From: Candidatus Micrarchaeota archaeon
Lineage (GTDB): Archaea; Micrarchaeota; Micrarchaeia; Anstonellales; Bilamarchaeaceae
Assembly: GCA_038046805.1 (NCBI GenBank)
Contig: JBBSVO010000002.1
Location: forward strand, 2,528 to 66,527
Length of the DNA stretch: 64,000 nt
Direction of reading: 5' to 3'
This document shows positions 13,475-61,011 of the stretch, piece after piece. The notes beneath the pieces were generated by a model. The model searched no databases. It was not told the origin of the DNA and saw only the letters and a list, made by a program, of their open reading frames with translations. The position numbers were made by a program, and so were the translations under genes. Position 1 is the first letter of the stretch, and the number at the start of each line of letters is the position of its first letter.

Positions 13475-14476
13475 TTATATAAGCTTTATTAATCCTCTTC
13501 CAACCTCTGGTATGTTCCCTCCGAACAGGCTTGTGCTGGATAACACAAATGTAAGAGTTATTGTAAGCGCCATAAGCGGGATAAGACATATGCTGAGTGT
13601 GAGCTGTTTCACTACTTTGCCGGATATGAATTCAGTTATCATAGAAGTTGACTGAATGTTTCTTTCTATCCAGGATTCCGCCTCTTTTATTTTTGTCTGG
13701 TCAAACATCCCGCTTGAGCTTAAAGGATTGTCTTTTAGCACTGGTATCGCGCACCAGTCTCCACTGTAATCCAGTACCATCAGATCAGTCACTATATACG
13801 AAAGCGGAAATATGAAATACATCCCTATTGCAAATGCCATAACATACGCTCCGGCACCGCGCGTTGGGGGAAATGAACGCATCAATATTCCTGCTGGAAG
13901 AAGAATCGTAAGCGCAGTATATTTTACAAAATTTAAAATATTCACAAAAAGGTAGTATATGAATGTGTAGAATGTTATTGCATTCGTAGTGTTTGATATT
14001 CTTTCGGTTACTGCCTTTACTGCAAATCCGGATGCGACTTCCGACATGAATATTTCGATATATGTACTTGCCGCCATTTCGTGCGGTATCGCTATGATAT
14101 AAAGTGTCGTCATAGCGTTTTTCATACAATCTACCTTTGGTTTCATAAGCGCCTTTGTAAGCTCTATCATGGAAGAATCCGTTGGAACATTGTTCGCACC
14201 AATAGCCTGTTGGGATATGTCATTCATCACGCCCTCCATGAGCGGCTCCATTTCATTCAGAAACAATACGAGGAACAAAACCAGTATCACTGTTGATGCG
14301 GCGAAAACCATCTCGGCTTTTGCATTCTGCTCAAGGTTTTTCAGATCGAAATATTTTGAAACCATCCACAGGATAGTCGCAGCAAACACTGATGCAATCG
14401 TTGCAAGGGCAACGGCGCCCATCCATTGCGGATCCGGAAGCGGTGCAATATTTCCTGCCAGAACACTCATAATCAT
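13475..14476 (-). CDS. Polytopic membrane protein, tandem-array paralog 6 (uncharacterised family)
   Basis: Shares with the five upstream ORFs a TM-'AKAE'-TM hairpin, the loop motif 'LLPAGILMRSFPPTRGAG', and the C-terminal tail 'GGNIPEVGRGLIKLI'. Confidence 0.8.
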   Translation of the reverse strand: MIMSVLAGNIAPLPDPQWMGAVALATIASVFAATILWMVSKYFDLKNLEQNAKAEMVFAASTVILVLFLVLFLNEMEPLMEGVMNDISQQAIGANNVPTDSSMIELTKALMKPKVDCMKNAMTTLYIIAIPHEMAASTYIEIFMSEVASGFAVKAVTERISNTTNAITFYTFIYYLFVNILNFVKYTALTILLPAGILMRSFPPTRGAGAYVMAFAIGMYFIFPLSYIVTDLMVLDYSGDWCAIPVLKDNPLSSSGMFDQTKIKEAESWIERNIQSTSMITEFISGKVVKQLTLSICLIPLMALTITLTFVLSSTSLFGGNIPEVGRGLIKLI

Positions 14477-14489
14477 TACCTGACCTTTC

Positions 14490-15650
14490 TCATATCAGCC
14501 TCGTCAGGCTGCTTATGTCTATTTCTTCACCCATTGTCTTGCTTATGCCTTTTATTGCATGTATTATCAAAAGAATGTTAAATGCTGATGCGAGTCCGAG
14601 TATTATCACAATTCCTATCATCATCATTGGGAGTATGAGGGCCATGTACATCGCGCCTCCGGTTCCGCTTTTGATCAGATTAACAATGAGATTTCCGGTA
14701 GAATATTCCTGAACAGGGCTTGGAGCAGAGCCTGGCGGTCCATTGTTAAGGTTTGGCGTAATCTTCGGGCCTACCCCTACCCAGTTCTCCGCGAATTTAT
14801 CTGCATTGAGCTTTGCCTTATCTGAAGTTATACTAAACACCGGTTTGGCATAAGCCTCCATATTTCCGATCGTTTCTTTTGCGAAATTATCTGTGGTTTC
14901 TCTTAATATCTCTCCGGTTATCACAGTCAAGGCAGGATATATGAACAAAAATCCTATTCCAATTGCAATCAATGTTCCTCCAATCCGCCTTGTTGGCGTG
15001 AAGCACCTCATCATTATCCCGATTGGCAGATAATATTTCAAAAATCCAACTAGCGCGAATTCAAACACTACTTTCTGCGCGTAGTTTGTTATGAATACGA
15101 TTGCAAGGAAATTTGTTGCCTGGTATAAGACATTTTTTATCGGGGCTCCAAGCCCTGCGCCTGGAGAGCTGACCAGTCCAAGACCCAGAGGCTTTGAAAA
15201 TATAGTTGTACTTGCAAGCATGTCAGCCTGCATTGCAAAGAAGTGGTTTGTGATCATTACTCCTATAATCGCTTCTCCATTGTAATTGAAAAAATCCATT
15301 GCCGAGCTGTACATGTTCCAATCCTTATGCGCCGATTCCGGGAATATCCACCCTACTTTTATTTCGCAGAATCTTCCGACCATGAATGCTATCGCAATTA
15401 TTATGATTGCCGTGACAAAAAGTTCATTTACCTCGAATTTCGCATATGCGCTGAGCTCCTGGTTTCTGAACATGACTCCAAAAAGATATATGATTGCAAG
15501 TATCGCTGCTGATGCCGCAAGCGCAATGCCTGCGATTCCCATCCAGTCTGGAAGTCCAAGTGCTGCCATTCCCGAACCGAAGCTTAGTTTCGCCGCAAGT
15601 TCGGTCGTCTTTCCAGCTTCGCACATGACACTTGTTATCTCAACTACCAT
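14490..15650 (-). CDS. Polytopic membrane protein, tandem-array paralog 5
   Basis: 'LPDWMGIAGIALAAS', 'YAKFEV', 'YLPIGIMMRCFTPTRRIG', and the tail 'MGEEIDISSLTRLI'. Confidence 0.8.
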   Translation of the reverse strand: MVVEITSVMCEAGKTTELAAKLSFGSGMAALGLPDWMGIAGIALAASAAILAIIYLFGVMFRNQELSAYAKFEVNELFVTAIIIIAIAFMVGRFCEIKVGWIFPESAHKDWNMYSSAMDFFNYNGEAIIGVMITNHFFAMQADMLASTTIFSKPLGLGLVSSPGAGLGAPIKNVLYQATNFLAIVFITNYAQKVVFEFALVGFLKYYLPIGIMMRCFTPTRRIGGTLIAIGIGFLFIYPALTVITGEILRETTDNFAKETIGNMEAYAKPVFSITSDKAKLNADKFAENWVGVGPKITPNLNNGPPGSAPSPVQEYSTGNLIVNLIKSGTGGAMYMALILPMMMIGIVIILGLASAFNILLIIHAIKGISKTMGEEIDISSLTRLI

Positions 15651-15685
15651 GTTTTACCCTCTCGCAAATATTCATTATGCAATTC

Positions 15686-16990
15686 CTATATCAATTTCAC
15701 AAACGAAGTAAAACTCACTTCTGAGCCGAAAAACCTTGCGATTTCCTTTGCCGCAGTCAGTGTAACAAATATGTTTATGAACGGAAGGATAATGCTCACA
15801 ATTACGATGTAATATACCGCGCTTTTCACTATGTCAAATACAAGGCTGATTACCCCTCCTATGAGTATCGGAACAAGTATTGATCCAACGAGCATTGCGA
15901 GGATTATCGCGGTTATTCCAGCCCCAAAAAGTCCTGTTGAGGTAAAGAAATTTTCCAGGAGTGTGTCGCTTGGGAGTACTACCGGGGAAGTTAGTTTGTA
16001 TGCCTCCCAGTTCATTATCATCATTACTGGATAAACGATTACGAATGAGAACACCAGCGCAAAGAGCGCGGTTCCTGCACTGCGGGTTTGAGGGAATGCC
16101 CGAAGCAGCATTGCCGCGGGAATAAATATTGCGAAAACCCATTTCTTTGTAAAGCACAATATATAGAAGTGGGCAACCCATTCAACAAGGGTTGCTGATA
16201 AAAATTGTATCACGATGCCAACGATATCTACAATCGGCTTTAACACCGGACCAACGTTGAATGAGAACATTGCCTTGAACGTTATTCCTACGTATATTGT
16301 TGCACTGTAAAGTGTATGCAGCCACATATTAAACAGCAAAAGAGAGGAAAGATTGCTTGCTATCTGGTAAGTCATATATTGCGAGTATATCATCGCAGCG
16401 TCTATTATCGAAGTAGTCTGTTTGTATATGGCGTCTTCTGCAAGTTCCGAGCCGGGAGCTATTTTGACATTGAACCATATATTCATCGTGACCATTATTC
16501 CTATGATAAAAACTGCCAGAAATATTGTCATTAGTGTCTGCCACCATTCCTCTCTGGCTATTGAAAGAAGTTGAGGTGATTGCAGTGCCTGACCCACAAG
16601 GTATAATACAGCGATTGCCAGAAAGATTATTCCTGCTGCATATATAGAATATGAAAGCATGTTGGCGTATTTTCCAGCGTCAAATTCTCCCTTTGCCTTT
16701 GCAGCCTTTGGGGCGGCGTCCTCTGCCCATGCATCCTCGCATGTTATCCTGTCAAGCGGTCCGGAAATGGTCTTGAATGCCCAACTGCCTATATTCTTGA
16801 GCCCGTCTATAGAGTAAGATTGGATAACATTGCTTGAATCCGTATATGATTTCCAGCTGTTTGGATCGTTTGGTTCTGTGGGTTGCGCAAATGTAACACT
16901 ACCTAAAATAAAAATGAGCAAAATCACTGCAAGTGCAGGTACCCCTGACCTGGGCTTCCATACTTGTGCAGTTTCCTTTGTTTCGTTCAT
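15686..16990 (-). CDS. Polytopic membrane protein, tandem-array paralog 4 (with N-terminal signal/anchor)
   Basis: 'FIPAAMLLRAFPQTRSAG' and the tail 'FGSEVSFTSFVKLI'. The N-terminus 'VPALAVILLIFILGSVTFAQP' looks like a signal peptide. Confidence 0.8.
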   Translation of the reverse strand: MNETKETAQVWKPRSGVPALAVILLIFILGSVTFAQPTEPNDPNSWKSYTDSSNVIQSYSIDGLKNIGSWAFKTISGPLDRITCEDAWAEDAAPKAAKAKGEFDAGKYANMLSYSIYAAGIIFLAIAVLYLVGQALQSPQLLSIAREEWWQTLMTIFLAVFIIGIMVTMNIWFNVKIAPGSELAEDAIYKQTTSIIDAAMIYSQYMTYQIASNLSSLLLFNMWLHTLYSATIYVGITFKAMFSFNVGPVLKPIVDIVGIVIQFLSATLVEWVAHFYILCFTKKWVFAIFIPAAMLLRAFPQTRSAGTALFALVFSFVIVYPVMMIMNWEAYKLTSPVVLPSDTLLENFFTSTGLFGAGITAIILAMLVGSILVPILIGGVISLVFDIVKSAVYYIVIVSIILPFINIFVTLTAAKEIARFFGSEVSFTSFVKLI

Positions 16991-17061
16991 TTTATCATCC
17001 GTATTTTTTACTCTTTTATAATCTCTTATGATCTAATTGCGTGGTTATCAATCTCCATTTA

Positions 17062-18384
17062 TCATATCAGGTGTGTTAGTCCTGCAATTTCCAGATCTCC
17101 GCCAAATATTGCAGACATGCTTTTTATCGCAGCAATAGTTGCCATGACCCCGAGAAATGAAAAGAACAGGGAAAAAAATGTAAGCCTGCTTGCCGCGTCT
17201 ATGTATCCTCCGCGTGCAAGGGTTTCAGTGATGACTTTCCCAGGATTATACCAGTTTTGCTGGTCCAGTTCTTTGCCCCAGATATTAACTTCGTCTTCCA
17301 TACTCTTTGTTTTCTTTCCTTCTTCCACAGCATTATCTATTACCCCGCAAAAATCCAAACCCAAATCCGTCCCGCCTAATTTGTTCATCGGACTTCCGGT
17401 TCCTGTTCCGCCAAATGCATCTGTTCCATAATTGCTTTTTCCAGCCGCCTCTATCTCGTTATACCCTAACACTCCGCCACTCATGATCTTTCCGAATATC
17501 GGAAGGTCATCTTTTTCAACATATATAGAACTTATCGCGAGCGCATTCGGATCCCCTCCGGATGCAGTTATCGCCTTTAGTTTCATCTGCCCGTAGAATA
17601 CTCCTCCGAGCGCATAAAACATTGGGAATATAAAAAACATCGAAAGAGCCATTGCCATTAGTAATCCTCCAAGTTTTCTGGTGAAGAAAAATGTTCTAAG
17701 TACGATTCCAATGGTAAACATTACTGGGAAGATACCCATTGCTATAAACCTGAGAAGAACTTCCTGGAATTTCGTTATCGTCATCAATTTAACTGTATAA
17801 TCAAACATATTTGATTTTACTATATTTCCCTGCACGAAAAATCCTTTTATTGGAGTATATGCAAATACCCCTGTTTTTTCTCCTGTTATTTCTATGTTCA
17901 GGTTTACTTCTGCAAGCATGGACGTGACGATATATTCCCGATACATCTGCGAAGCAAGTTCATTGCCTTCGTTGAATATGGAATTCAGGAAATGCATCCC
18001 AACCTTTATGTGGCAGGGAAGTCCGTCGTAGTAATCTGCCTTTGCAAACGCATCGCTACAGACTGCCTGCCCCAGAACGTCTTTTCCAATTGGTTCGTTC
18101 GGGTTTGTAACAAGCGATTCCGCGACCTGGTTTGCACCTCCCAAAAACGAAATAGTAAGTACAATGAGGACTGCAGAGTAAATTACTTCCACAACTTCTA
18201 TTCTTGCCCAGGTCTTTATCTTGTCATTGGAAAGAAAGGCCCCAAGAATATATACCAAACTAAGAATTCCAGCAGATATTACAAGCAATACTGCTGCAAT
18301 TTGTAACCAGTCAGTGTATACGCTAGTGAGAAATCCAAGCGCATTGCCGTTTTTCAATAATTCAATGTCAATCATTTTTATCAT
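17062..18384 (-). CDS. Polytopic membrane protein, tandem-array paralog 3
   Basis: 'DWLQIAAVLLV', 'WARIEV', 'TIGIVLRTFFFTRKLG', and the tail 'FGGDLEIAGLTHLI'. Confidence 0.8.
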   Translation of the reverse strand: MIKMIDIELLKNGNALGFLTSVYTDWLQIAAVLLVISAGILSLVYILGAFLSNDKIKTWARIEVVEVIYSAVLIVLTISFLGGANQVAESLVTNPNEPIGKDVLGQAVCSDAFAKADYYDGLPCHIKVGMHFLNSIFNEGNELASQMYREYIVTSMLAEVNLNIEITGEKTGVFAYTPIKGFFVQGNIVKSNMFDYTVKLMTITKFQEVLLRFIAMGIFPVMFTIGIVLRTFFFTRKLGGLLMAMALSMFFIFPMFYALGGVFYGQMKLKAITASGGDPNALAISSIYVEKDDLPIFGKIMSGGVLGYNEIEAAGKSNYGTDAFGGTGTGSPMNKLGGTDLGLDFCGVIDNAVEEGKKTKSMEDEVNIWGKELDQQNWYNPGKVITETLARGGYIDAASRLTFFSLFFSFLGVMATIAAIKSMSAIFGGDLEIAGLTHLI

Positions 18385-19430
18385 GCCTTTGAGATTATAA
18401 ATTTCGTAACTGCATTTATAAACGAAAACGTAATTACTGTTGAGAATGCGGGCAGGAATAATGAGACCAGCGAAAGCTCCCCGAGTGCCTCAAGTAAGGG
18501 CTTCATTAGTAAAAATGTGACGCTGTATGCCATGCTTTCCATTGTGAGGGTACTTATCGCGGTTCCGGCAAATGCTCCAAGTGCTGGTACTCCCATTGCT
18601 CCGAATAGAAACTTATTTACATCAGCCAGTATTGTGCCGCCAGCTCCGATTATTGCAGCACTTCCTACAAATCCCCATTTCCAGTAGCCTATTTCCCCAG
18701 AACCGATATATGGGATATATTCAGTGCCCCGTTCGGTAATCTGCCATAAGTCATTAAGTGCCATTTCATTTAGCACATACGTCATAGGGAGCACTGTCTG
18801 GAAGGCTATAGATGCAACTATCAAAAATGTCCCGGCATCTTTTGTTGGCGGAAGAAATCTGAGAAGAATTCCGGCGGGCAGTAAGAATTTATATGCTATG
18901 GCGTCTACGATTGAGAGTATAAAAACCTGTGCAGAAAGGCTGCTATATACCATTGCCAGTGCATATCCAAGAACATTTGTTATTCCAACAACACCATCAG
19001 AACCCGGGGCTACCTTGTATATCCATGTCCATACAGCTTCGTGCGGCCTGAAATACAATGTGTTATATGTTGAGAATGCAACCTGAATTGTGTACACGTC
19101 ATTTATTGCCTCAAGAACGCCCTGAGACTTTATCTTTTGCAGAAATTTCATCGCTGAATTTATTGGGTCGTTTCCTATCATTGTGCATGAAGCGGATTTC
19201 ATTCCCTCAAAAAATGCCACTGCAAGTATAAGCGTAAGAAGTGCGAGCCAGATATCTCCCAGTCCAACTTTCGCGCCTGCCTCCCATTCCGGTCTTTTGA
19301 ACATTATCCCGGCGGCGTATTTTATCAGGGTAAAAAGCGCCAGGAATATGACTACTACTGCAGTTAGCTGATAATATTCAATGGATGGATTTGCTACGGC
19401 AAACGGGAATCCACTTACAACACACGCCAT
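18381..19430 (-). CDS. Polytopic membrane protein, tandem-array paralog 2 (lacks the conserved tail)
   Basis: 'LLPAGILLRFLPPTKDAG'. It ends '..NAVTKFIISKA' without the GxExEI..LI tail, and its stop overlaps the paralog-3 start by 4 nt. Confidence 0.75.
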   Translation of the reverse strand: MACVVSGFPFAVANPSIEYYQLTAVVVIFLALFTLIKYAAGIMFKRPEWEAGAKVGLGDIWLALLTLILAVAFFEGMKSASCTMIGNDPINSAMKFLQKIKSQGVLEAINDVYTIQVAFSTYNTLYFRPHEAVWTWIYKVAPGSDGVVGITNVLGYALAMVYSSLSAQVFILSIVDAIAYKFLLPAGILLRFLPPTKDAGTFLIVASIAFQTVLPMTYVLNEMALNDLWQITERGTEYIPYIGSGEIGYWKWGFVGSAAIIGAGGTILADVNKFLFGAMGVPALGAFAGTAISTLTMESMAYSVTFLLMKPLLEALGELSLVSLFLPAFSTVITFSFINAVTKFIISKA

Positions 19431-19489
19431 ATGTCTGTCCTCCAGTTACTCTAGTCTGTTTACACTGTTTACTCTAATCTGCTTACTGT

Positions 19490-20767
19490 TTACACCAGTT
19501 TTGTTATACCTATTATTTCCTGTTCTCCGCCAATGATCGCGCTTATGTTTCGGTACATTGTTATTGTTATTATTATTTCGAATACTGATGTTACGATTAC
19601 AAGAATGACAAATTGCGATACGATTACTACTTCTTCAACTATGAAGTAATAAAGACCCTGGACTACTCCCACGGCAGGACCGACACCCCAAAGAAGGGAT
19701 GTAATTGAAATCCCAAAGTCTCCAAAAAGTTTTACCATAAATTTGAATACATCTTTTGCGGTTTTCAGTACGCCCGTAATATTGTCCCACATGTCTCCAA
19801 AAAAGCCAGTTATTTTTGTTGAGGTTGATTCATCGGGCTTTGTCCCATAATTTGCCATGACACCGCTTGCGCTTTCGCCAGAAATTTTTTCCCACGTCTC
19901 TCTCATTTCCACCAGTTTGTCTGTTTTTGTCTTCAATGCATTTTCCTCTGCTGTGGGGTCTCCGTTTGCAGCGCAAAACCCTATCGCAGTGGGAACATAT
20001 ACCATATCTATGGGCTTATACACATCGAATATGAGGTAATTAGAAAGAATTATGCTAAGCGGATAAACAAAATATGCGACAATACATATCGCAATTATGC
20101 TCGAACCTGTTGAGCGGAGCATAGGAAATGCGCGCATAACCAATCCAAGCGGAAGGAGTATTGTTGGGATAACGTACGTTGCAAACTGGATGAGGTGTTG
20201 TTTTGATACTATCGCTACCATCACCATTCCTATTGCCTCAACCAATACTGTGTGTGCATTACTCAGAAGTGACAAGCCCACTAGTGGAGGAACAGAAATT
20301 GGCAACACTGCCAGTAATGGATTAAACGTTCCAGCTGAAATATAAATCGTTGAAAGGAATCCAATGAGCATTTCAAAGAGATATAAGCTTACGTAAATTG
20401 ATTTTAGTTCCTGAAATAATAATTCAAGAGATGCATACGCGATACCAAGATGCGATGGACTTAGGGATTTTGCCAAGGTGGTTGTGTCGCAACTATTAGC
20501 TGTTCCGGTTATCACAAGTCTACAGGCGCCCTCCCACATTATTCCCTGAAAAAAGAACCATCCACCTACAATTATAATGCTCATTATAAGTGCTGCTAGT
20601 TCTTCTTTTGCAGCTGCGTTGAGAGGTGGGTGCTGCAGAAAATATGAAGCAAGATACATTCCTCCGGTTACAGCTATTCCGATCAGGATAGCAATTCCGA
20701 TATACTGGATGGGGAACGTGGCAGAAGTTAAAGTAAAAAGTAGCGGAAGCAACGCAGTTATTCCCAT
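19490..20767 (-). CDS. Polytopic membrane protein, tandem-array paralog 1
   Basis: 'AAKEEL', 'LLPLGLVMRAFPMLRSTG', and the tail 'IGGEQEIIGITKLV'. I prefer the start at Met22 (20767). The track start at 20830 would overlap the divergent pilin-like gene. Confidence 0.75.
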   Translation of the reverse strand: MGITALLPLLFTLTSATFPIQYIGIAILIGIAVTGGMYLASYFLQHPPLNAAAKEELAALIMSIIIVGGWFFFQGIMWEGACRLVITGTANSCDTTTLAKSLSPSHLGIAYASLELLFQELKSIYVSLYLFEMLIGFLSTIYISAGTFNPLLAVLPISVPPLVGLSLLSNAHTVLVEAIGMVMVAIVSKQHLIQFATYVIPTILLPLGLVMRAFPMLRSTGSSIIAICIVAYFVYPLSIILSNYLIFDVYKPIDMVYVPTAIGFCAANGDPTAEENALKTKTDKLVEMRETWEKISGESASGVMANYGTKPDESTSTKITGFFGDMWDNITGVLKTAKDVFKFMVKLFGDFGISITSLLWGVGPAVGVVQGLYYFIVEEVVIVSQFVILVIVTSVFEIIITITMYRNISAIIGGEQEIIGITKLV

Positions 20768-20790
20768 GTATAAATCTGCGGACCCAGTTC

Positions 20791-20799
20791 TTTTAAATG
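20791..20799. promoter_or_regulatory. Candidate shared bidirectional TATA box ('ttttaaatg')
   Basis: This is the only A/T box placed about 26-28 nt from both start codons in the 53-bp gap. It lies about 26 nt from the + strand start (20821) and about 28 nt from the - strand start (20767). That spacing fits leaderless archaeal transcripts. Confidence 0.4.
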
Positions 20800-20820
20800 T
20801 ATCCTCTGTAATTATTTGTG

Positions 20821-21405
20821 ATGAATCCAATAACCTGTCCGGGAGCTTTCAGAACCGGTTTTATCTTTTCCATAGATTCGTTCGTTGCATTTTCTCTTTC
20901 ACTAGTGGCAATTTATTCAATGCTCTTCTTTTCCAGCATCCCCTCAGCGTATTATTCCTCTCTTATGCAGGCACATTATCTTGCAAAGGACACGCTCACT
21001 GCCCTCTCACTTTCAAATTCTTCTGAAGATGGGGTAAGTGAATTGGGCTATCTTTTATTTGTGGTTTCAAAACCAGCACAATCTGCCGTCATAGAAGAAA
21101 GGATTGGTCCGCTTATTCCAAATCAATTCGGTTATCTGGTTGAAACAAGTGAAGATGGCGAAGAATGGGACGTAGTATACGACACAAAAGATAATCCATC
21201 TGATTCACATAACAAGGCATATAACAAACTAAGAGCATCTGCAGGAACGCTTATTTTCGGTTATGCATCCTCTCCAAAGACCCCGCAAAGCCCATATCGC
21301 TATATTACCTGCAATGGCCCCTACACACAATGCGGTCCGGCATCAAGTCCATATCCCCGTGCAACTGGAAGCATGAAACTCGTGCGGTTGGTGGTGTACG
21401 TATGA
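20821..21405 (+). CDS. Class III signal peptide (type IV pilin-like) protein 1
   Basis: N-terminus 'MNPITCPGAFRTG|FIFSIDSFVAFSLSLVAIYSMLFF': a short polar leader, Gly, then a hydrophobic helix with an acidic residue at +6. Confidence 0.65.
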   Translation: MNPITCPGAFRTGFIFSIDSFVAFSLSLVAIYSMLFFSSIPSAYYSSLMQAHYLAKDTLTALSLSNSSEDGVSELGYLLFVVSKPAQSAVIEERIGPLIPNQFGYLVETSEDGEEWDVVYDTKDNPSDSHNKAYNKLRASAGTLIFGYASSPKTPQSPYRYITCNGPYTQCGPASSPYPRATGSMKLVRLVVYV

Positions 21406-22973
21406 CGAATTATAAGGGATTCTTTTTCGTGCTCGTCTCGTTTTTCATACTGGGGTATATTCTTACATCGTTGACTCTTTGGACAAAATCCATAGATGTT
21501 GCAGAGAAGAAATTCGCTGAAAAATTCAAATTTTCCAATATCGAGCTTGCTGTTTCGCAACTTACAGAAGAAAAAGTTTCTGATTTCGCAGAGATGAGTG
21601 CATATTACGCACTTTACAAATTAAATGAGCACAGCATAAATTATCCGGTTGTTCCAGTCGAGGGTAGTTCAGGGAGCGAAGCTGATTTTAAGAATGCGAA
21701 AGACGCTGTCTGGTCTATGATACAAAACGGAAGTGCATCTGGAAATTATTTTGAAGAAAACGTGCCTCTTATTTATGATACCTCCGAACAGTCCGATCTT
21801 ACGTTTGCAGGGTGGTTCGGTTCAATCAACAAAAGCCTTTCATATATAGGCGCGCAGGTGGATTCATTCGGGGTTTCCGGATTCACAATGAATCAGACGG
21901 ACTTTTCCCATCTTAACTATTCGTTCAAGGTTGATTTTTCCGCATCTGACAAAAGCGGTATCATGTTTATCACACGTTCGTTCGTTGTCAATGGAACTCT
22001 TGAATTGCAGGGACTTGACGACCCGGCAGTTGCAAGAGAAACAAAAAAAATATTAAATGGGAGCGAAGTGCGAAAGCAATTCTTTTTCCATGATGATTAC
22101 CCTTCACCAGCTTCAACCAATCCTGCGCAAATCGCTGCAGGTTCTGCAGGCCAGGGGTGGTTTTACGGTGCAGTTGTTCAGGCAATCGATGCTCCTGCTA
22201 TAAAACCGTTCCAGCGAAATACCACGATTTTGGTTGGCACATACGAAGAAATAACCTCCCTGGTTGGTATTAACTATAATTTCCAGGATTTCGGTGCGTT
22301 CATCCTCACGAGCGAGCCATCAACTGTGGATTCTGGTTGTGGTGGTTCAAAGAAAAACGAGCTTAACACATTCAATGCAATTAATTATGATTCAACTTCC
22401 TGTTCTGCAAAGATAAACGGAGGGTCAAAAACAGAGAAGCCGTTTATTGTGGCAAAGGATTTCCAGATTGCCGTTCCATACCCCGGGTTTGATTCAACGT
22501 TCGTCCTGTTTGTGAATTCCGCGGACCAGTCCGAGGTGTCATCGAACCCGGAAAAGAAATCCGGCTCTCCGAAAATTTACAATATAGAATTACTTCGGGA
22601 TTATGCAATCTGCAGTTATTACACTGCGAATCCAAAGGCTCCGTCCTATTTCCAGCGCCTGTTTAAGAATTCTTATGAACTGGAAGGCGGAAAGCTTGGA
22701 ATAGAATCATTTGTCTTCGGAAAATGGCTTGGCGGAAGTGATTATCCTGCTGCCGACATTTATAGTAGATTAGATCGGGAAATGTTCAAGGAAATAACCG
22801 GAACAAACATACGTGGAATGCCCGGATGTAAAAACAAGGAGATGTGCGGAAGCGATTCTCAGGTTGGACATTTCAAACTAACAGACCCAAGCGCTAAAAA
22901 TTATATAGGGCCCGATGCAACTGATTCAACAAACGGTTTGTTTTGTAGTAAAGGTGCATCGTGCGGAAACTGA
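21402..22973 (+). CDS. Large class III signal peptide (pilin-like) surface protein 2
   Basis: The start ATG (21402) overlaps the upstream stop (ATGA). N-terminus 'MTNYKG|FFFVLVSFFILGYILTSL' precedes a roughly 500-aa ectodomain containing scattered Cys. Confidence 0.7.
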   Translation: MTNYKGFFFVLVSFFILGYILTSLTLWTKSIDVAEKKFAEKFKFSNIELAVSQLTEEKVSDFAEMSAYYALYKLNEHSINYPVVPVEGSSGSEADFKNAKDAVWSMIQNGSASGNYFEENVPLIYDTSEQSDLTFAGWFGSINKSLSYIGAQVDSFGVSGFTMNQTDFSHLNYSFKVDFSASDKSGIMFITRSFVVNGTLELQGLDDPAVARETKKILNGSEVRKQFFFHDDYPSPASTNPAQIAAGSAGQGWFYGAVVQAIDAPAIKPFQRNTTILVGTYEEITSLVGINYNFQDFGAFILTSEPSTVDSGCGGSKKNELNTFNAINYDSTSCSAKINGGSKTEKPFIVAKDFQIAVPYPGFDSTFVLFVNSADQSEVSSNPEKKSGSPKIYNIELLRDYAICSYYTANPKAPSYFQRLFKNSYELEGGKLGIESFVFGKWLGGSDYPAADIYSRLDREMFKEITGTNIRGMPGCKNKEMCGSDSQVGHFKLTDPSAKNYIGPDATDSTNGLFCSKGASCGN

Positions 22974-32065: not shown

Positions 32066-32096
32066 AATTTTTATAATTAGTTTGCATTTTTAAATC

Positions 32097-32213
32097 CAGA
32101 GATTCCACTGGTCTTGTGACCAGTGGCACACAGGTAACACATGGCCTGACGGTGGAATCTCTGCCTGTCAAAAACAAGCACAAGCAACCGGTCTCTGACC
32201 GGTGGTTTTTGAC
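32097..32213. ncRNA. Candidate structured RNA: two adjacent nested hairpins in a divergent intergenic gap (strand unknown)
   Basis: Hairpin A has a 12-bp perfect outer stem (32097-32108 with 32152-32163) enclosing an inner 'tggtc-ttgt-gacca' stem-loop. Hairpin B has a 9-bp outer stem (32167-32175 with 32205-32213) enclosing 'ccggtc-tct-gaccgg' (32188-32202). Confidence 0.35.
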
Positions 32214-32302
32214 ATACGTTATCTGGAAAATTTTCTGCATATGCGCAGTTTGTTTGTACCGTTATTCGCGCTGTTTTTATTTTTAATCACCGTAACCATT
32301 TT

Positions 32303-34218: not shown

Positions 34219-34785
34219 TTATTTGCTTTGAGTTTTATCCGCGTATTTTCTGAGCATATTTTGCGCTTTTTGAAGGACGATCTTAATCTCTTTTTCTTTT
34301 TTTGCTCCTGCACAGATAACCTTTCCATTTTTGAACAGAAGCAAGGATGCCTTTGGCTCTTTGAATTTTAGTATTGCTCCAGGAAACTGCTCCGGCTCAT
34401 ATTCAACGTCTCTTACTTTGTATGCAATCTTGTAAAGATCAAGACCCATATTAAGATTTGCTGATGCAACTATATTTGTAATATCAATCTCAGGCTTCTT
34501 TTTCGTGATTATTTTGGTTGCGTATGGTGTAAGCATTTTTATGGTTTTTTCCACTGTCTTTTCTATTATATCTCGTCTTTTGCATCCCACGCATACGATC
34601 TTTCCGTTTTTGAACAAAAGAAGTGTTGCCTTTGGCTCTTTGAATTTTAGTATTGCTCCAGGAAACTGCTCCGGCTCATACTCGACTTCTTTCATTTTCT
34701 GTGCAAGAGAAAATAAGTCAAGTTCTAGTCCAAGGTTAGCAGAGGCTACCATATTTGTAATTACGAATTCGGGTTTTTTACCCAA
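34219..34785 (-). CDS. tbp: TATA-box binding protein
   Basis: Two TBP repeats, each with 'NIVASANL..LDL..IA....VEYEPEQFPGAILKFKEPKA.LLLFKNGK'. Confidence 0.95.
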   Translation of the reverse strand: MGKKPEFVITNMVASANLGLELDLFSLAQKMKEVEYEPEQFPGAILKFKEPKATLLLFKNGKIVCVGCKRRDIIEKTVEKTIKMLTPYATKIITKKKPEIDITNIVASANLNMGLDLYKIAYKVRDVEYEPEQFPGAILKFKEPKASLLLFKNGKVICAGAKKEKEIKIVLQKAQNMLRKYADKTQSK

Positions 34786-34852: not shown

Positions 34853-34989
34853 ATTCCGACTTCTACAGTGATCCACGGAAGTTTTGCGAAACTTCCGCGT
34901 CTCACAGTATAGCAAACCATGAAGTTATTATACGCTATAATCTACGCGGCAGGGGGTGCATACTTTCATGGTTTGATATAGTCGTAAAT
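34853..34989. ncRNA. Candidate structured RNA, copy 1 of a two-copy element (strand unknown)
   Basis: Homologous to 57014-57145. Hairpin H1 is 34876-34897; the long stem H2 pairs 34908-34923 with 34965-34980. Both stems carry compensatory changes between the copies. No conserved ORF is present. Confidence 0.5.
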
Positions 34990-35050: not shown

Positions 35051-35326
35051 ATGGTACGTCGCTCAAAAGGTTTAATGTCAAAAAAGACCAAAAAGATAAA
35101 ATCTTGTGGAAGATTCACGGTTTCACGCCTGACAAAATCATTTTCCATAGGAGACAAGGTTGGACTTGATACCCAGCCATACTTTTCAGGCATGTCAAGC
35201 CTGAGGTATAAAGGTGCAATTGGAAAAATTGTCTCTAAGAGAGGATCGTCTTATGTGGTTGAGATAAAAGATGGGAACATGAAGAAGAATCTCGTGCTCC
35301 ATCCAATACATTTAAAACAATTATAG
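35051..35326 (+). CDS. rpl21e: Ribosomal protein eL21
   Basis: 'MVRRSKGLMSKKTKK' N-terminus and an SH3-like body. It sits in the conserved archaeal order L21e-Rpo4-DUF655. Confidence 0.85.
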   Translation: MVRRSKGLMSKKTKKIKSCGRFTVSRLTKSFSIGDKVGLDTQPYFSGMSSLRYKGAIGKIVSKRGSSYVVEIKDGNMKKNLVLHPIHLKQL

Positions 35327-36255: not shown

Positions 36256-36276
36256 ACGGCTAAAACTCGGAACCAG

Positions 36277-36362
36277 AAACCAACCTTTTTATTTCCTTCC
36301 CATATCCCTTTTCTTTTGTGAAAAGAAAAGGGCTGAGGGTTTCACCCCAAAAGAAAACTCAG
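36277..36362 (+). repeat. A1+B1 module: promoter-like box 'aaaccaacctttttatttcctt' followed by a compact hairpin element
   Basis: The 22-nt A box is repeated perfectly at 36385-36406. B1 (36297-36362) contains 'cccttttctttt-gtg-aaaagaaaaggg' plus 'ctgagggtttcacccc'. It is a short version of B2 (36538-36700). Confidence 0.7.
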
Positions 36363-36384
36363 TATTAACAAAACTCAGAATGTA

Positions 36385-36406
36385 AAACCAACCTTTTTAT
36401 TTCCTT
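36385..36406 (+). promoter_or_regulatory. A2 box: likely tRNA-Val promoter (TATA-like 'ctttttattt')
   Basis: Perfect 22-nt copy of 36277-36298, ending 24 nt upstream of the tRNA 5' end. Confidence 0.45.
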
Positions 36407-36430
36407 GGTGACTTTGAATTATCTACCTTT

Positions 36431-36537
36431 GGGCCCGTAGTCGATTCCATTGCATGGTTTTCTGTGCTGTTGGCGGCAGCGGTTAAGACGTCGCTCTTAC
36501 ACAGCGAAGACGCGCGGTTCGATTCCGCGCGGGCCCA
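36431..36537 (+). tRNA. tRNA-Val (anticodon UAC) with a roughly 34-nt intron in the D-loop; no encoded CCA
   Basis: Acceptor GGGCCCG/CGGGCCC plus discriminator A. Anticodon arm UCGCU-CUUACAC-AGCGA. T arm CGCGG-UUCGAUU-CCGCG. The D stem GUCG/AGAC is interrupted after about position 14 by 36445-36478; removing it gives a 73-nt cloverleaf. Confidence 0.85.
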
Positions 36538-36700
36538 TTCCCATATCCCCTTTCTTTTAGAATCCAGGGAACAAAGTTCCCTGCCCCTCCAAAAGCTTTT
36601 CGCTTTTGAAGGAGAAAGGGGCTGAGGGGTTTACAATTCGCAAGAATTGTAAAGCTGGGAAAATCCTTTCGGATTTTCACGGATTCACCCCCAAAGAAAA
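36538..36700 (+). repeat. B2: expanded copy of the B element starting immediately at the tRNA-Val 3' end (possible co-transcribed structured RNA)
   Basis: It has the same ends as B1 ('ttcccatatccc..', '..tcaccccc-aaagaaaa'). Two insertions are each made of perfect hairpins: 'cagggaac-aaa-gttccctg', 'acaattc-gcaa-gaattgt' and 'gaaaatcc-tttc-ggattttc'. Confidence 0.6.
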
Positions 36701-36856: not shown

Positions 36857-38959
36857 ATGTCCAAGTCTAAAAACGAATACTCCGAGCTTGCCATGTACTC
36901 AGAGAAGATTACGAAAGAGGACTACAAACGCTTATTTGACACAATCATAAAGAAAAATATCCCGATCTTCGAATTCATTGATTTATCAAAAATCTTCTCT
37001 TTCAGTGGGTTCCAGATCGTGGTAAAGCGCTTCAACAACACTATAAAGATGTATTTTGGCGGCAGGTCCATAGAAGCGCACCAGCAGGCTGCCCTGTTCT
37101 TTCCGTTTAAAATCGATGCGCCAAAGGAATTGGAATTAACCAAGAGCCACTTTTCACTTAAAACCAAGTTCGTGAGCCACATCAATATGTTCGACTTTTT
37201 GATAAAAGAGGATGTGGCCGAAATACGCGTAAAAATAATGAAACTGTTCGGAAGATACTATGGATTCGGGAACTTCATATCCCAGGAAGGGGAGCGCGGC
37301 ATCCTTTATCTCTCAAATCCAACAACGTTCTTTGAAATTGATCTTGAGAAAAATCCGCAATTTTATATAGAGCTTCTTGATCCGATACCAAAGGCAGTTT
37401 ACCTTAAATCTGACGATCCAATTTTTGAGCAGGATGGAATAACGATAGGCACGGACAACTTCAGTGCAATGCAGCACAGCCTTATTGTTGGTTCTTCGGG
37501 AACTGGAAAGAGCAAATTCATAGAAATATTAATTCGCGCGATGAAAAAGCGCCACGGCCACAATTTGCGCGTTCTTGTGATAGATCCGCATGGTGAATTC
37601 TCCAAAACATTCGAAGGCGAAAAAGTAGTGGACTTCGTAGAAAACTACATCGAGCCGTTTGATATCGGAAAGGAAAAGAGCCCGCTTATTACCCAGCTTG
37701 TCGCCCAGTTAATAACCTCTACAATCAGCCAGGAGAACAAGTATGCAGAGCGCGTTGTTTTCTATGCCGTGCACATGCTTGCGGAAACAGACCAGCTTAC
37801 ACTTCAGAATATCAACCTGTTGCTCACAGACTCGGCAAAAAGAATGGAATTCAGTTCATTGTGCCACAATGACGAGGTGCGCAGGTTCTTTGATGAGGAG
37901 TTCCAAAATATTTATCTTCATCACTTTAATGATGCAATACTGCCAGTCATTAATTTCATAGGAGAATACCAGCTTTATCTCGGAAAGGCAAAAAAGCTCG
38001 AAACGCTTGAAGAACTGCTGAAAAACAACGTGGTCACGGTCGTTTCATTCAACCCGCACTATTTTGGAAGAAAAATAATCCGATTCTTTGCCGGCGCGAT
38101 CATAAACCAGATTTATATGATGGCCATAAGCGAGAAACTCACAATGCCAACAGTGCTTGTAGTGGATGAATTCCCAACTGTGGAAAGCAGGGTTACAAAG
38201 GATATTCTTGCCGAAACAAGAAAGTTCCAGCTTTACATGCATGTTTCTGCGCAGTATCTAGGCCAGCTCTCAAAGCCTGTTCTGGATGCAATAGTCAGCA
38301 ACGTACGAAACATAATTTCGTTCAAATGCACCCGTGATGATGCGCATTTCCTCGTATCTATGATGGAAATCAAGGTAGAAGAGTTCTTCAAGAAAAAAAC
38401 CAGCCCAAGCGAGCTCGAGGAATCCAAGAAGGAAATGTTTCTTAAACTCCATCCAAGGGAATGCATTGTCCGTCTTTTTGACGGTGCAAAATACATTCTT
38501 CCAATGAAGGTAAAAACTGTCAATATGGAAACCTGGAGGAATATGCCGTCGACTGGTTCGCGTCCATTCCAACCTGTTCCCCCATCATCTTCTTCCCCTA
38601 CACCTCCACCTTCATCTTCTCCATTTTCTCCACCTTCTTCTGGCGGCTTAGCTCAGCCAGCTGAGAAAACGCAGGAACCATTACAGGAAAAAGATGAACC
38701 CGGCGAGCGAGAATATAAAAAATATCTTGAAGATCAAGAGCTTGAAAAAGAATCTGGCGCTCCATCCTCCGAAGAGAAAAAACTTGAAAAATTTGAAAAA
38801 GTTGAAAACCCCCCAGAGAAATCAACAGAAAAAACCAAGCAGTCTGGAAAACCAACGGGCAAATCTAAGGAAAAAGAGAAGGAAAAAGGAAAGCGGGGCG
38901 TAAAGGTTACTTACGAAGACGAAGAGGACGAGAATCCATTCAGGAATAGGGAGATATAG
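36857..38959 (+). CDS. HerA/FtsK-superfamily ATPase (DUF87-like) with a disordered P/S- then K/E-rich C-terminal tail
   Basis: 'HSLIVGSSGTGKSKF' (Walker A), 'RVLVIDPHGEF' (HerA hallmark), 'TVLVVDEFPT' (Walker B), and 'ETRKFQLYMHVSAQYLGQL'. The last roughly 150 aa are low-complexity (PPSSSSPTPPPSSSPFSPP..., EKEKEKGKR). Confidence 0.8.
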   Translation: MSKSKNEYSELAMYSEKITKEDYKRLFDTIIKKNIPIFEFIDLSKIFSFSGFQIVVKRFNNTIKMYFGGRSIEAHQQAALFFPFKIDAPKELELTKSHFSLKTKFVSHINMFDFLIKEDVAEIRVKIMKLFGRYYGFGNFISQEGERGILYLSNPTTFFEIDLEKNPQFYIELLDPIPKAVYLKSDDPIFEQDGITIGTDNFSAMQHSLIVGSSGTGKSKFIEILIRAMKKRHGHNLRVLVIDPHGEFSKTFEGEKVVDFVENYIEPFDIGKEKSPLITQLVAQLITSTISQENKYAERVVFYAVHMLAETDQLTLQNINLLLTDSAKRMEFSSLCHNDEVRRFFDEEFQNIYLHHFNDAILPVINFIGEYQLYLGKAKKLETLEELLKNNVVTVVSFNPHYFGRKIIRFFAGAIINQIYMMAISEKLTMPTVLVVDEFPTVESRVTKDILAETRKFQLYMHVSAQYLGQLSKPVLDAIVSNVRNIISFKCTRDDAHFLVSMMEIKVEEFFKKKTSPSELEESKKEMFLKLHPRECIVRLFDGAKYILPMKVKTVNMETWRNMPSTGSRPFQPVPPSSSSPTPPPSSSPFSPPSSGGLAQPAEKTQEPLQEKDEPGEREYKKYLEDQELEKESGAPSSEEKKLEKFEKVENPPEKSTEKTKQSGKPTGKSKEKEKEKGKRGVKVTYEDEEDENPFRNREI

Positions 38960-55214: not shown

Positions 55215-56219
55215 ATGGAGATTTCAAAATTTATTAAAAAACTCCCAAAGGCAGAGTTACATATTCACATAGAAGGGACACTTGAACCGGAGCTTCTATT
55301 TTCTATCGCAAAGAGAAATGGGATACATCCTAAGTATTCAAATGTCCGGGCTCTGAAGAGGGCATACAACTTTAGAAATTTACAGGATTTCCTTGATATT
55401 TACTATGAAGGATGTAGGGTCTTGCGTACAAGTAGGGATTTCTATGAATTGACATTGGCTTATTTTTCGAAAGCACACACACAAGGACTACGGCATGCAG
55501 AGCTTTTTTTTGACCCGCAGACTCACACGTCAAGAGGAATACCATTTCGTGTAGCTATTGAAGGAATTCATATGGGTTGCGTAGAAGCACGCAAACGGTT
55601 TTCCATATCTTCAAAAATCATCATGTGCTTCTTAAGACATCTATCCGAAAGAGAAGCGATTGAAACACTAGAAGAATCTTTGCCTTATCGAAAATGGATT
55701 GATGCGATTGGACTTGATTCCTCAGAACAAGGAAACCCTCCTTCAAAATTTAGACACGTATTTTCTCAAGCACGAAAAGCCGGCTTTCTAACAGTTGCTC
55801 ATGCTGGGGAAGAGGGACCTGCATCATATGTTAGTGAAGCAATCTCTCTATTGAAAGTATCAAGAATTGACCATGGGAATCATGCACTTGATAATAAAAA
55901 ACTTGTTAAGTATTTGGCAAAAAAAAGAATACCTTTAACAGTCTGCCCGCTTTCAAACCTCAAATTGTGCGTAGTTAAAGATCTTCGAAAACATCCCCTA
56001 AAAACGATGCTACTGGCAAAACTTTTAGTTACCATTAATTCAGATGATCCAGCTTATTTTGGGGGATATATTGGAGATAACTATCAGGCCATACAAAAAG
56101 CCATTAAACTTACAAATAAAGAATTAGTACAATTGGCAAAAAATTCTATCGAAGCGTCATTTCTAACACATACAAGGAAAAAATATTTGATGCGGCTTAT
56201 TGATCAATATGCAGAATAA
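55215..56219 (+). CDS. Adenine deaminase of the adenosine-deaminase superfamily (bacterial/eukaryotic ADE type)
   Basis: 'LPKAELHIHIEGTLEPELLF', 'FFDPQTHTSRGIPF', 'GLDSSE.GNPPSKF', 'TVAHAGEEGP', 'SRIDHG', 'PLTVCPLSN', 'INSDDPAYFGGY'. It is collinear with bacterial adenine deaminases as I remember them. Confidence 0.85.
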   Translation: MEISKFIKKLPKAELHIHIEGTLEPELLFSIAKRNGIHPKYSNVRALKRAYNFRNLQDFLDIYYEGCRVLRTSRDFYELTLAYFSKAHTQGLRHAELFFDPQTHTSRGIPFRVAIEGIHMGCVEARKRFSISSKIIMCFLRHLSEREAIETLEESLPYRKWIDAIGLDSSEQGNPPSKFRHVFSQARKAGFLTVAHAGEEGPASYVSEAISLLKVSRIDHGNHALDNKKLVKYLAKKRIPLTVCPLSNLKLCVVKDLRKHPLKTMLLAKLLVTINSDDPAYFGGYIGDNYQAIQKAIKLTNKELVQLAKNSIEASFLTHTRKKYLMRLIDQYAE

Positions 56220-56626
56220 AAAATATGACATCGGCACACCATTTCCTAAGGATTGAGAATTTCGAAGAAATTCGAGAGAATTGAAATCAGCAGATTTCAA
56301 TCAGAAACGCATTGTGTGTCCTGAAACCTCGTAGCTCAGGCAAACGATTCTGAAGAGCGAAGCATTGAAACTTGGCAAAGCAAGTTTCAAAATTTGAAAA
56401 AATTACATTTTTCAAAGCTCTTTGGAAGCTTTTGGCATCAGCCAAATGAGTTCACACCAAGCATGCGGTCTGAGTCGGAAGCTTTTGGTAACAGCCAAAT
56501 AGGACTTCTCCTAGCATGTTTTGTAGTGGGGAACTAAAATGTGGATATCCACATAAAGGTAGGCACTACAAAAGGCACTTGATTTGTATCTGGAAGCTGT
56601 CGAGTAGCACCCAATTTCGCGTACTT

Positions 56627-57074
56627 TCATTTGTCCGCCCATTCATCCCATACTCTTTTCGTTTCCGGCTCTCGCTTTCCGCAAGGCGGCTCTACTTTAA
56701 TTTTTCCGTTGTCGTCAAAGAGTCTTGCATAAACCTGTCCAAGCGTTCGCTCTCCATCCCTTTGGCGCGAGGTTGTTTCATTTATTCCGCCTCGCACGCG
56801 CGTAGCCTGTAATGCCATTATTCTTCTGCGTGTTTTTTTGTTCATAAAAATTTGTTGTCCGTAGTTTTGTGTAAACATCTATGATTTTGGGTAAACACCT
56901 TACGTAGTGATCTGCGCGAACGAAGTGAAGCGCTTTGTTACCGTGATCAACGATAGCGAAGCGCAGAAAGGGAGTAATTTCATGCTTCTCAAGACAGCCC
57001 GGCAGCGCCCCTGATTCTGACTTATAGTGATCCAAGAAAGTCTTGCGAAACTTTCTTGTCTCACTACATAGCAA
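56627..57074 (-). pseudogene. Possible decayed gene (two overlapping frames, no recognisable family)
   Basis: ORFs 56778..57074 and 56627..56878 overlap in different frames on the same strand. Both look protein-like ('FAIVDHGNKALHFVRADHY', 'RTLGQVYARLFDDNGKIKVEPPCGKRE'), but neither is complete. Confidence 0.25.
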
Positions 57075-57145
57075 ACCACGCCGTCATGGCAAAGCAGCAA
57101 TAGTATAGAGTCTTGCATTACTTTCGTGGTTTGCTATAAGTAAAG
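57014..57145. ncRNA. Candidate structured RNA, copy 2 of the two-copy element
   Basis: Aligns with 34853-34989. Hairpin H1 is 57033-57056. Stem H2 pairs 57068-57080 with 57125-57137 (13 bp, perfect). Confidence 0.45.
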
Positions 57146-57194
57146 CGGGCTTCCCCGTTTGCCGTGAAAACCAGCTGTGTTGCCTTTTCCTTTT

Positions 57195-57498
57195 GAGCCA
57201 AAACGCAACATGTCCGAGACGCGAAACTCGGAACCGGAAACGCTTTTGTCTAAGCCACGCTCCGTCGCCATACATCGGCGCTGTAGCGTGTCTGCTCCAC
57301 CCTGTGAACTTACAAGCACAGAGAAATAAACTTATGGCTGCTCCTTTCGGTCTGACCAGATTCGCGTATTCCTCTGCCATATAAGGCAGGGTTTCGACGC
57401 TTACGGAAAAGGGCGCAACAGATTCTCGCAACGCCCGGGGCATTCGGTCCGTCTAAAGGGGATTTACGGTGCCGGGACCCCTAGCCCCGACCTAGCCC
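57195..57498 (-). ncRNA. SRP RNA (7S RNA); ends approximate (+/- 15 nt)
   Basis: The minus strand at 57360-57331 reads 'CUGGUCAGACC-GAAA-GGAGCAGCCAUAAG'. This is the universally conserved helix-8 motif (compare E. coli 4.5S 'GGUCAGGUCCGGAAGGAAGCAGCCAAGG') with a GNRA loop. The 5' end 'GGGCUAGGUCGGGGCUAGGGGUCCC' is G-rich, and 'UUUGGCUC' near 57195 can pair with it. The length of about 304 nt is typical of archaea. A/T-rich promoter boxes lie at 57505-57540. Only short overlapping ORFs occur here. Confidence 0.8.
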
Positions 57499-57759
57499 AG
57501 TAAGTATATGTTATAATAAGGTAATTAAGGTTTATGTAATGGGTTTCGGGTCTTCAGTTCCGCGTTTTGGAAGATAATTATTTATGGTCTCGCATTATGT
57601 GTTCCGAGCGCAAGAGTGTTTGCTAGTAAACCTCTATGGTTTTTGGCAAGTGCCCGTCCTTGTCCTAATATATTTGAAATCCAAAAGGCTTGTGGCACGC
57701 AGATTTAAAAAGAAATTGCTCTATATTCCATCATTCGACCAGATATTTCGGGTGAAACA

Positions 57760-60728: not shown

Positions 60729-61011
60729 CGCTCCAAGGGCTAAATCTGCTTGAACTACGTTCAAGTCTCTCGGGCAAAGCCCTCGATCCCTTGGCTTCCA
60801 ATATTTGCTTTAGGCGGAAGCCGGAGGAATACTCTTGTCGCCTGCGGGTTCGCTCCTCCAATTGAACGCCGATGCGTTCAATGGACCACAAAACGAGTTC
60901 GTTTTGTCGGTCCTCGGTTTGAAAACCAAGGCTTCCTAACACGGTCTGAGCAGGGTAATAAAAATTTTATATTGCTGCTCAAACCGTGTTACCGCGAACC
61001 CTTGGAGCGTC
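60727..61011. ncRNA. Candidate large structured RNA (about 285 nt, multi-helix, strand unknown)
   Basis: A 13-bp perfect closing helix pairs 60727-60739 with 60999-61011. It encloses at least six local helices: 60749-60765 (7 bp), 60793-60799/60816-60822 (7 bp), 60823-60828/60854-60859 (6 bp), 60862-60881 (8 bp), 60883-60913 (13 bp with 1 bulge) and 60940-60953/60975-60988 (13 of 14). No plausible ORF is present. Confidence 0.5.

Follow-up and report, generated by a model that had tools for sequence, protein, structure and literature searches.

Two stretches of an archaeal genome that keep their base pairing through changes in sequence raise the question of whether they encode a structured RNA or have preserved a fold for some other reason. 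They lie at 34853–34989 and 57014–57145 of a 64,000-nt stretch of a Candidatus Micrarchaeota contig, hereafter the window, and are homologous, aligning over their entire length. Their conserved blocks occur at only these two places in the window: the composite patterns AGTGATCCANNNAAGTNTTGCGAAACTT and GTCTCACNNNATAGCAAACCA have two matches each in the 64 kb, with about zero expected by chance, and a covariance model run with filters off finds no copies there beyond the two. An earlier note on this DNA had already recognized the alignment and had read the conservation of pairing as the mark of a functional RNA. We find that the pairing is indeed kept, but that the inference to an RNA gene fails in the face of empty sites, a TA duplication and inverted repeats; the copies are very probably a small, non-autonomous mobile DNA element (MITE) that inserts at TA and whose hairpin fold has been kept.

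The empty sites are found in close relatives. In locus L150, which encodes a SepF 97% identical to that of the window, the sequence matching window positions 56626–57024 (L150 1846–2224) runs directly into that matching window positions 57137–57165 (L150 2223–2251, 100% identical), and the two contiguous matches overlap by 2 nt, TA. Where L150 has GACT-TA-AGTAAAG, the window has GACT-TA-[112 nt]-TA-AGTAAAG; written out further, TTTCTGACT-TA-AGTAAAGCGGG corresponds to ATTCTGACT-TA-(TAGTGATCC...GGTTTGCTA)-TA-AGTAAAGCGGG. The same holds for copy 1 in L155, whose TBP is 98% identical: its empty site reads atatttacgac-TA-gaagtcggaatgcc, and the window reads atatttacgac-TA-[113 nt]-TA-gaagtcggaatgcc, which on the minus strand is atatttacgac-TA-(TATCAAACC...GGATCACTG)-TA-gaagtcggaatgcc. 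As the same flanks enclose a single TA in both L150 and L155, the window copies are insertions of 112–113 nt accompanied by a TA duplication.

These comparisons fix the boundaries of the element. The body of copy 1 occupies 34866–34978 on the minus strand (113 nt; covariance-model match of 115.5 bits), between tbp (34219–34785, minus strand) and rpl21e (35051–35326, plus strand), and that of copy 2 occupies 57025–57136, also on the minus strand (112 nt; 119.2 bits), 109 nt downstream of the SRP RNA gene and on the same strand as it. The duplicated TA of copy 1 lies at 34864–34865 on the tbp side (...GGATCACTG-TA-gaagtcgg in the window, acgac-TA-gaagtcgg in L155) and at 34979–34980 on the rpl21e side (atatttacgac-TA-TATCAAACC in the window, a single TA in L155); that of copy 2, delimited by the L150 alignment, lies at 57023–57024 on the left and 57137–57138 on the right. 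The length of roughly 135 nt first given for the element thus has to be reduced to 113 and 112 nt with TA flanks, although the homology itself stands, and the shared block 'att.c.gactt' and part of the block 'tata.gt..aaa', which had been counted as element, are flanking target sites in L155 and L150. The flank of copy 1 at 34853–34863 (ATTCCGACTTC) is found unchanged beside the empty site in L155, and that of copy 2 at 57014–57022 (ATTCTGACT) appears in the L150 empty site as TTTCTGACT. The two flanks resemble each other because both insertions struck similar short palindromes centred on TA, namely CGAC-TA-GAAGTCG at copy 1 and GACT-TA-AGT at copy 2, where the target in L150 is the palindrome ACTTAAGT. 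More generally, the target is TA, often within a short AT-rich palindrome such as ACT-TA-AGT, and TA is present at 17 of the 18 ends of the nine copies described below. An apparent closing stem (P1) between the flanks of copies 1 and 2 reflects these palindromic target sites; across copies, its pairing is no better than in shuffled controls.

The element is absent from the SRP–SepF region of ten loci (L145–L154, SepF 97% identical) that keep the gene order around SRP RNA, SepF and ScpA, and from the rpl21e–tbp spacer of L128, L129 and L130, relatives with TBPs of 83–87% identity, as well as of L155. Formally, the two empty sites could also stem from precise excision in L150 and L155 instead of insertion on the side of the window. 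Copy 1 is missing from a lineage with a 98% identical TBP, which shows that transposition has been active recently. About 10 nt from the empty site of copy 1, L155 has a different insert, about 165 nt long and rich in hairpins (300–495), which includes a TA-flanked mini-element with 11-nt inverted ends (TA-TTCAGAATCAACGGG...TTGATTCTGAA-TA); the rpl21e–tbp spacer seems to be an insertion hotspot, and several families of TA-flanked mini-elements seem to exist.

Beyond the window we located seven more copies, giving nine in all. A covariance model built from seven copies detected w3, the third copy of the same genome, at 14431–14606 of L131, about 4.6 kb past the start of the window. The other six come from groundwater metagenome and read-archive assemblies: L122–L126 were retrieved from JGI metagenome contigs with a specific short-hairpin pattern, and L143 through a protein-database search with the spurious translation of the element. 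The genome of the window itself also turns up in GCA_964366365.1 and in several assemblies from Hainich groundwater, and the homologues of its TBP and SepF carry the label Candidatus Micrarchaeota. Most copies have a body of 112–113 nt (range 90–171 nt) and their neighbours are unrelated, including tbp, the SRP RNA gene, pth2, Fic, a 2-hydroxyacid dehydrogenase gene and unknown ORFs. L122 and L123 hold copies that are 96.7% identical within different flanks, whereas the three copies of the same genome (w1, w2 and w3) are rather diverged from one another, so the source copies of the recent insertions are unsampled. Three short contigs, from other assemblies of the same population, terminate within a copy of the element (L121 1–27, L137 5809–5858 and L139 4412–4461), which fits an assembly break at a repeat or at an insertion-polymorphic site.

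The ends of the element form imperfect terminal inverted repeats. In the consensus, TAGCAAACCACGAAAA and CAGTGATCCACGAAAG are identical at 11 of 16 positions (about 70% alike); four of seven copies share one alignment register for them, and in five of seven their score exceeds that of about 97% of shuffles. The element is small and non-coding, it ends in inverted repeats and duplicates its target site, and its dispersed copies are matched by empty sites in relatives, a presence/absence polymorphism. Together these features identify it as a MITE, and it constitutes a new MITE family in a Micrarchaeota (DPANN) genome, one whose double-hairpin fold is preserved unusually well. Its interior varies in the manner typical of MITEs: the loop diverges, L125 has suffered an internal deletion that leaves 90 nt almost without the variable loop, and w3 contains a nested insertion of 57 nt, comprising two small hairpins, in the loop of its 3′ hairpin. 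We rejected a reading of copies 1 and 2 as att sites of an integrated element, since the 22 kb that separate them consist mostly of housekeeping genes.

Each terminal repeat pairs with a complementary segment inside the element, so one strand, the minus strand of the window, folds into two adjacent hairpins, an arrangement present in all nine copies. The 5′ hairpin (34908–34980 in copy 1 and 57067–57138 in copy 2, both minus strand; H2 of the earlier note) has a nearly invariant 14-bp stem, UAUAGCAAACCACG/CGUGGUUUGCUAUA over the nine copies and UAUAUCAAACCAUG/CAUGGUUUGCUAUA, also 14 bp, in copy 1. Its loop of about 44 nt opens with a conserved AAARUAAUGC and is variable elsewhere; this motif, GCATTAYTTT on the other strand, is found in eight of the nine copies and takes the form AAAGUAUGC, with one A missing, in copy 1. 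A linker of 2–3 nt leads to the 3′ hairpin (34864–34909 and 57023–57068, both minus strand; formerly H1), in which a lower stem GUGA/UCAC is followed by a 2×2 GA/GA internal loop and four covarying pairs; the GA/GA loop and the top of the hairpin, AAGUUU-CGCA-AAACUU, are invariant in nine of nine copies. The GA/GA mismatches have never been 'repaired' in any of the nine, despite the arms staying complementary. The two hairpins are related in sequence (UAUAGCAAACCACGAAAGU versus UACUGUGAGACGCGAAAGU in sense orientation) and their ends are paired internally, and on these grounds the element seems to be composed of two foldback units in tandem, moving as one.

The compensatory changes first noticed between copies 1 and 2 are as they had been described, both in the 3′ hairpin (acGGaagt/acttCCg versus aaGAaagt/acttTCt) and in the 5′ hairpin (ccaTg/cAtgg versus ccaCg/cGtgg), and the loops of about 40 nt are, as claimed, otherwise unrelated save for the shared GCATTAYTTT at their 3′ end; mean identity drops from 0.87 in the core to 0.38 in the loop. 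Over nine copies, standard pairs occupy 97.5% of cells and 7 of 31 pairs have changed on both sides, a combination of pairing and double changes matched by none of 500 shuffles; sliding the partners by 1–3 columns lowers pairing to about 40%. On the sense (window minus) strand there are 13 G–U cells and 7 mismatches, and reading the same columns on the opposite strand gives 1 G–U cell and 19 mismatches. The wobble pairs thus favour the minus strand on a strand choice that had been left unresolved, but as independent events the asymmetry amounts to about five versus one (p roughly 0.1), so that it is suggestive. Folding energies of the two stretches are −50.1 and −56.3 kcal/mol on the minus strand (z of −5.2 and −6.7 against shuffled sequences) and −44.3 and −46.7 kcal/mol on the plus strand (z of −3.2 and −4.4). 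The earlier note had opposed to its RNA reading a MITE with inverted repeats, target-site duplications and no covariation; the inverted repeats and the TA duplication are there, and with seven double-changed pairs so is the covariation.

Comparison with known RNA classes gave no candidate. Rfam yields nothing at gathering thresholds and, at E ≤ 10, only chance-level matches on both strands, in line with the initial failure to place the element in a known class. On reading the sequence, the boxes or bulges that define C/D and H/ACA RNAs, K-turns, hammerhead ribozymes, 5S RNA and group II domain V are absent, as are the defining features or partner genes of CRESS/rolling-circle origins, ORB, attC, bridge RNA or omega RNA, and DGR. 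There is likewise no conserved reading frame, as had been noted from two copies: loop lengths shift the frame, several copies hold stop codons, and the conserved AUG of the loop opens ORFs of 71–72 aa in two copies only. A literature search with the motif sequences returned nothing relevant.

The kept fold is what the alternatives have to account for, and recognition of double-stranded inverted repeats by an ordinary transposase leaves the compensatory changes and the G–U asymmetry unexplained. It is possible, if on balance doubtful, that the MITE also works at the RNA level, being co-transcribed in 5′ or 3′ UTRs, with hairpins that would serve as a stabiliser, a processing site, a terminator aid or a protein-binding module. 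Such a role is compatible with the MITE explanation and adds a function to it, and selection on the RNA fold would explain both the compensatory changes and the strand bias. It is favoured by the paired state of 97.5% of cells and the seven double-changed pairs that 0 of 500 shuffles equal, by the 13 versus 1 G–U cells and the better folding of the minus strand (z of −5.2 and −6.7 against −3.2 and −4.4), by the invariance of the GA/GA loop and the 3′ hairpin top in all nine copies, and by the position of L124, L126 and L143, which begin 7–40 nt beyond the stop codon of an ORF running in the same direction; bcr1 offers a precedent (PMC3184786). No TATA-like box is visible upstream of these three copies, so if they are transcribed, it would be by read-through. 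TATA-like boxes precede only some of the copies and downstream T-runs are inconsistent, which speaks against a role in RNA, as do the small number of independent wobble events (about five versus one) and the lack, beyond shuffled controls, of complementarity between the loops and the flanking 300 nt, which also argues against a guide-like role. The contexts that can be scored are all convergent or divergent spacers, and the orientation of the copies relative to transcription is therefore uninformative.

A stronger claim, which we consider unlikely though conceivable, is that selection acts on the folded single strand as such, either as an RNA module spread by transposition or as a transposon with a single-stranded intermediate. 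As a module, the double hairpin, with its invariant GA/GA loop and UCGCAA top, may provide host transcripts with a protein-binding or stabilising structure; as a transposon, the element may pass through a folded single-stranded intermediate and yet make a TA duplication, a combination that to our knowledge has not been described so far.

Other readings fit the same observations less well. Arm-to-arm correction during replication or repair, through template switching or the repair of mismatches while a hairpin forms transiently, is an established mechanism in quasi-palindromes and would produce compensatory changes without selection; each of the stems is a short inverted repeat carried by mobile DNA, and other perfect hairpins abound in these genomes. 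We nevertheless judge it improbable, as it explains neither the GA/GA mismatch loop left uncorrected in nine of nine copies nor the tolerance of G–U but not of A–C. Movement by a tyrosine (HUH) transposase of the IS200/IS605 or RAYT type, as for a single-strand hairpin or a PATE/REP-like element, is very unlikely. A transposase recognizing folded single-stranded DNA would explain strand-specific hairpins, the strand-asymmetric wobble pairing and hairpins kept in structure rather than in sequence agree with it, and TTAC or TNAC lies directly upstream of several copies; IS200/IS605 elements and REPs, however, insert 3′ of a fixed tetra- or pentanucleotide and make no target-site duplication, and one is documented here, while the hairpins extend to the very ends of the element, leaving no subterminal guide segments, and no Y1 transposase is encoded among the window ORFs scanned. 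To the idea that the copies are stand-alone genes for small non-coding RNAs, paralogues with a guide-like variable loop rather than mobile DNA, we give scarcely any credence. Covariation, variable loops within a conserved scaffold and the adjacency of one copy to the SRP RNA gene and of another to a second conserved structured region are what it has in its favour. It is contradicted by the two empty sites with TA duplication, and the absence of the element from the orthologous sites of relatives means that synteny is not kept; promoters and terminators are not conserved, L125 is almost without the variable loop, the loops are not complementary to nearby sequence, and neither C/D or H/ACA boxes nor an Rfam match could be found.

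For the MITE reading that we prefer, the TA signature suggests how the element might be moved. TA duplication is a mark of the IS630/Tc1-mariner superfamily, and the insertion of our element at TA with duplication of TA resembles that of its members; the end of the element, TA-CAGTG, is one that we take to resemble Tc1-type ends. A DDE transposase of the IS630/Tc1-mariner kind, supplied in trans, would move the element. The hairpins stay complementary through compensatory changes, most probably because only lineages that retain the fold are able to spread; the fold could serve transposition itself, or could make the element tolerable or useful within the transcripts of neighbouring genes. The window ORFs scanned with Pfam include no transposase or autonomous element whose ends match, nor did patterns built from the end motifs match viral contigs, and BLAST against plasmids and phages returned no matches to the element.

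Small mobile elements with hairpins are known from other organisms, and each of them shares some properties with the element described here. Correia/NEMIS of Neisseria and RUP of pneumococcus are intergenic elements of about 100–150 nt of the IS630/Tc1-mariner type, with ends TATAG or CAGT, which insert at TA with a duplication and whose transcripts form hairpins; they are alike in size and in TA insertion with TA duplication, but are bacterial and unrelated in sequence. REP/BIME sequences and the IS200/IS605-derived PATEs are likewise short intergenic palindromes with conserved structure and strand-specific folding, but depend on Y1/HUH enzymes and make no target-site duplication, whereas our element has a TA duplication. 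The closest archaeal parallel we considered is the SM1–SM4 series of Sulfolobus solfataricus (listed in PMC10969869): short, non-coding and present in multiple copies, these bear terminal inverted repeats and are mobilised in trans. They belong to a different host phylum and have no sequence similarity, and each end of our element folds on an internal segment to give two hairpins instead of one long end-to-end hairpin. In the Bacillus cereus group, the MITE-like repeat bcr1, dispersed, about 155 bp long, transcribed and provided with 5-bp direct repeats, has an RNA fold kept by compensatory base-pair changes, as here (PMC3184786); it differs in those 5-bp repeats, where our element makes a TA duplication.

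The surroundings of the copies hold further structured and variable regions. Beside copy 1 stand the genes for TBP, ribosomal protein L21e, RpoF and DUF655, and between DUF655 and an ATPase gene lies a repeated hairpin family (CCCATATCCCTTTTCT.../...AGAAAAGGGCTGAGGG, 36262–36688); the ATPase gene itself (HerA/TrwB-like, 700 aa, 36857–38959) is fragmented in L127, another assembly of the same genome, and absent from this position in L128. A second structured non-coding region at 32093–32265 (plus strand) is 81% identical to L124 1390–1565, with long-range pairing CAGAGATTCCAC/GTGGAATCTCTG and TGTCAAAAAC/GTTTTTGACA and a related pair of hairpins, CCACYGGTC-TNT-GACCRGTGG, of which the second precedes TTTTT; it has no Rfam match, and its version in L124 carries a 49-nt nested hairpin insertion and is situated about 30 nt from a MITE copy. 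Upstream of w3, just outside the start of the window, a TATA-like box is followed by the 225-nt spacer at L131 14607–14835 (minus strand), which consists of four GC-rich hairpins, all near-perfect; the whole region of 376 nt has a folding z of −10.7 and no Rfam match.

Near copy 2, the SRP RNA at 57248–57502 (minus strand, about 255 nt) is the sole curated RNA close to the element, and it is atypical, divergent and reduced: it scores 54 bits against the archaeal model, for which the gathering threshold is 96.5, and 66 bits against the bacterial large-SRP model, which it passes. An adenosine deaminase gene at 55215–56219 takes the place that Fic/DOC occupies in L145 (3207–4139) within the same conserved gene order, a gene replacement beside the MITE insertion site among relatives with 97% identical SepF. 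Elsewhere in the window, a hairpin at 60937–60991 with 27-nt arms that are 81% complementary and a 1-nt loop adjoins a short block, window 60857–60912, that is conserved in L124, and seven large ORFs of 333–547 aa at 13475–22973, six on the minus and one on the plus strand, have no Pfam match. A weak model match of 20 bits in L129 (4451–4510) and L130 (4510–4569) consists of two adjacent small hairpins, the second with the UCGCAA loop that the element also has; the match may reflect distant kinship or mere chance.

What we describe has implications both for the search for structured RNAs and for our picture of these genomes. Compensatory changes occur here in a demonstrably mobile element, so on their own they do not identify an RNA gene. 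Recent transposition is now documented in a small, reduced Micrarchaeota (DPANN) genome, and the absence of copy 1 from a relative with a 98% identical TBP implies a working transposase somewhere in these populations; repeats of this kind may also break assemblies of these genomes. Since other TA-flanked hairpin mini-elements occur in the same genomes, the family is perhaps one among numerous such families. The archaeal MITEs compiled in a recent review come only from Sulfolobus, Halobacterium, Haloquadratum, Desulfurococcus and a handful of others, and none from DPANN or Micrarchaeota (PMC10969869). If the folded strand is the unit under selection, in either of the variants considered above, this would be the first MITE family to be characterised in a DPANN archaeon, and, should the fold work at the RNA level, transposition would have spread a ready-made structural module among the transcripts of its host.
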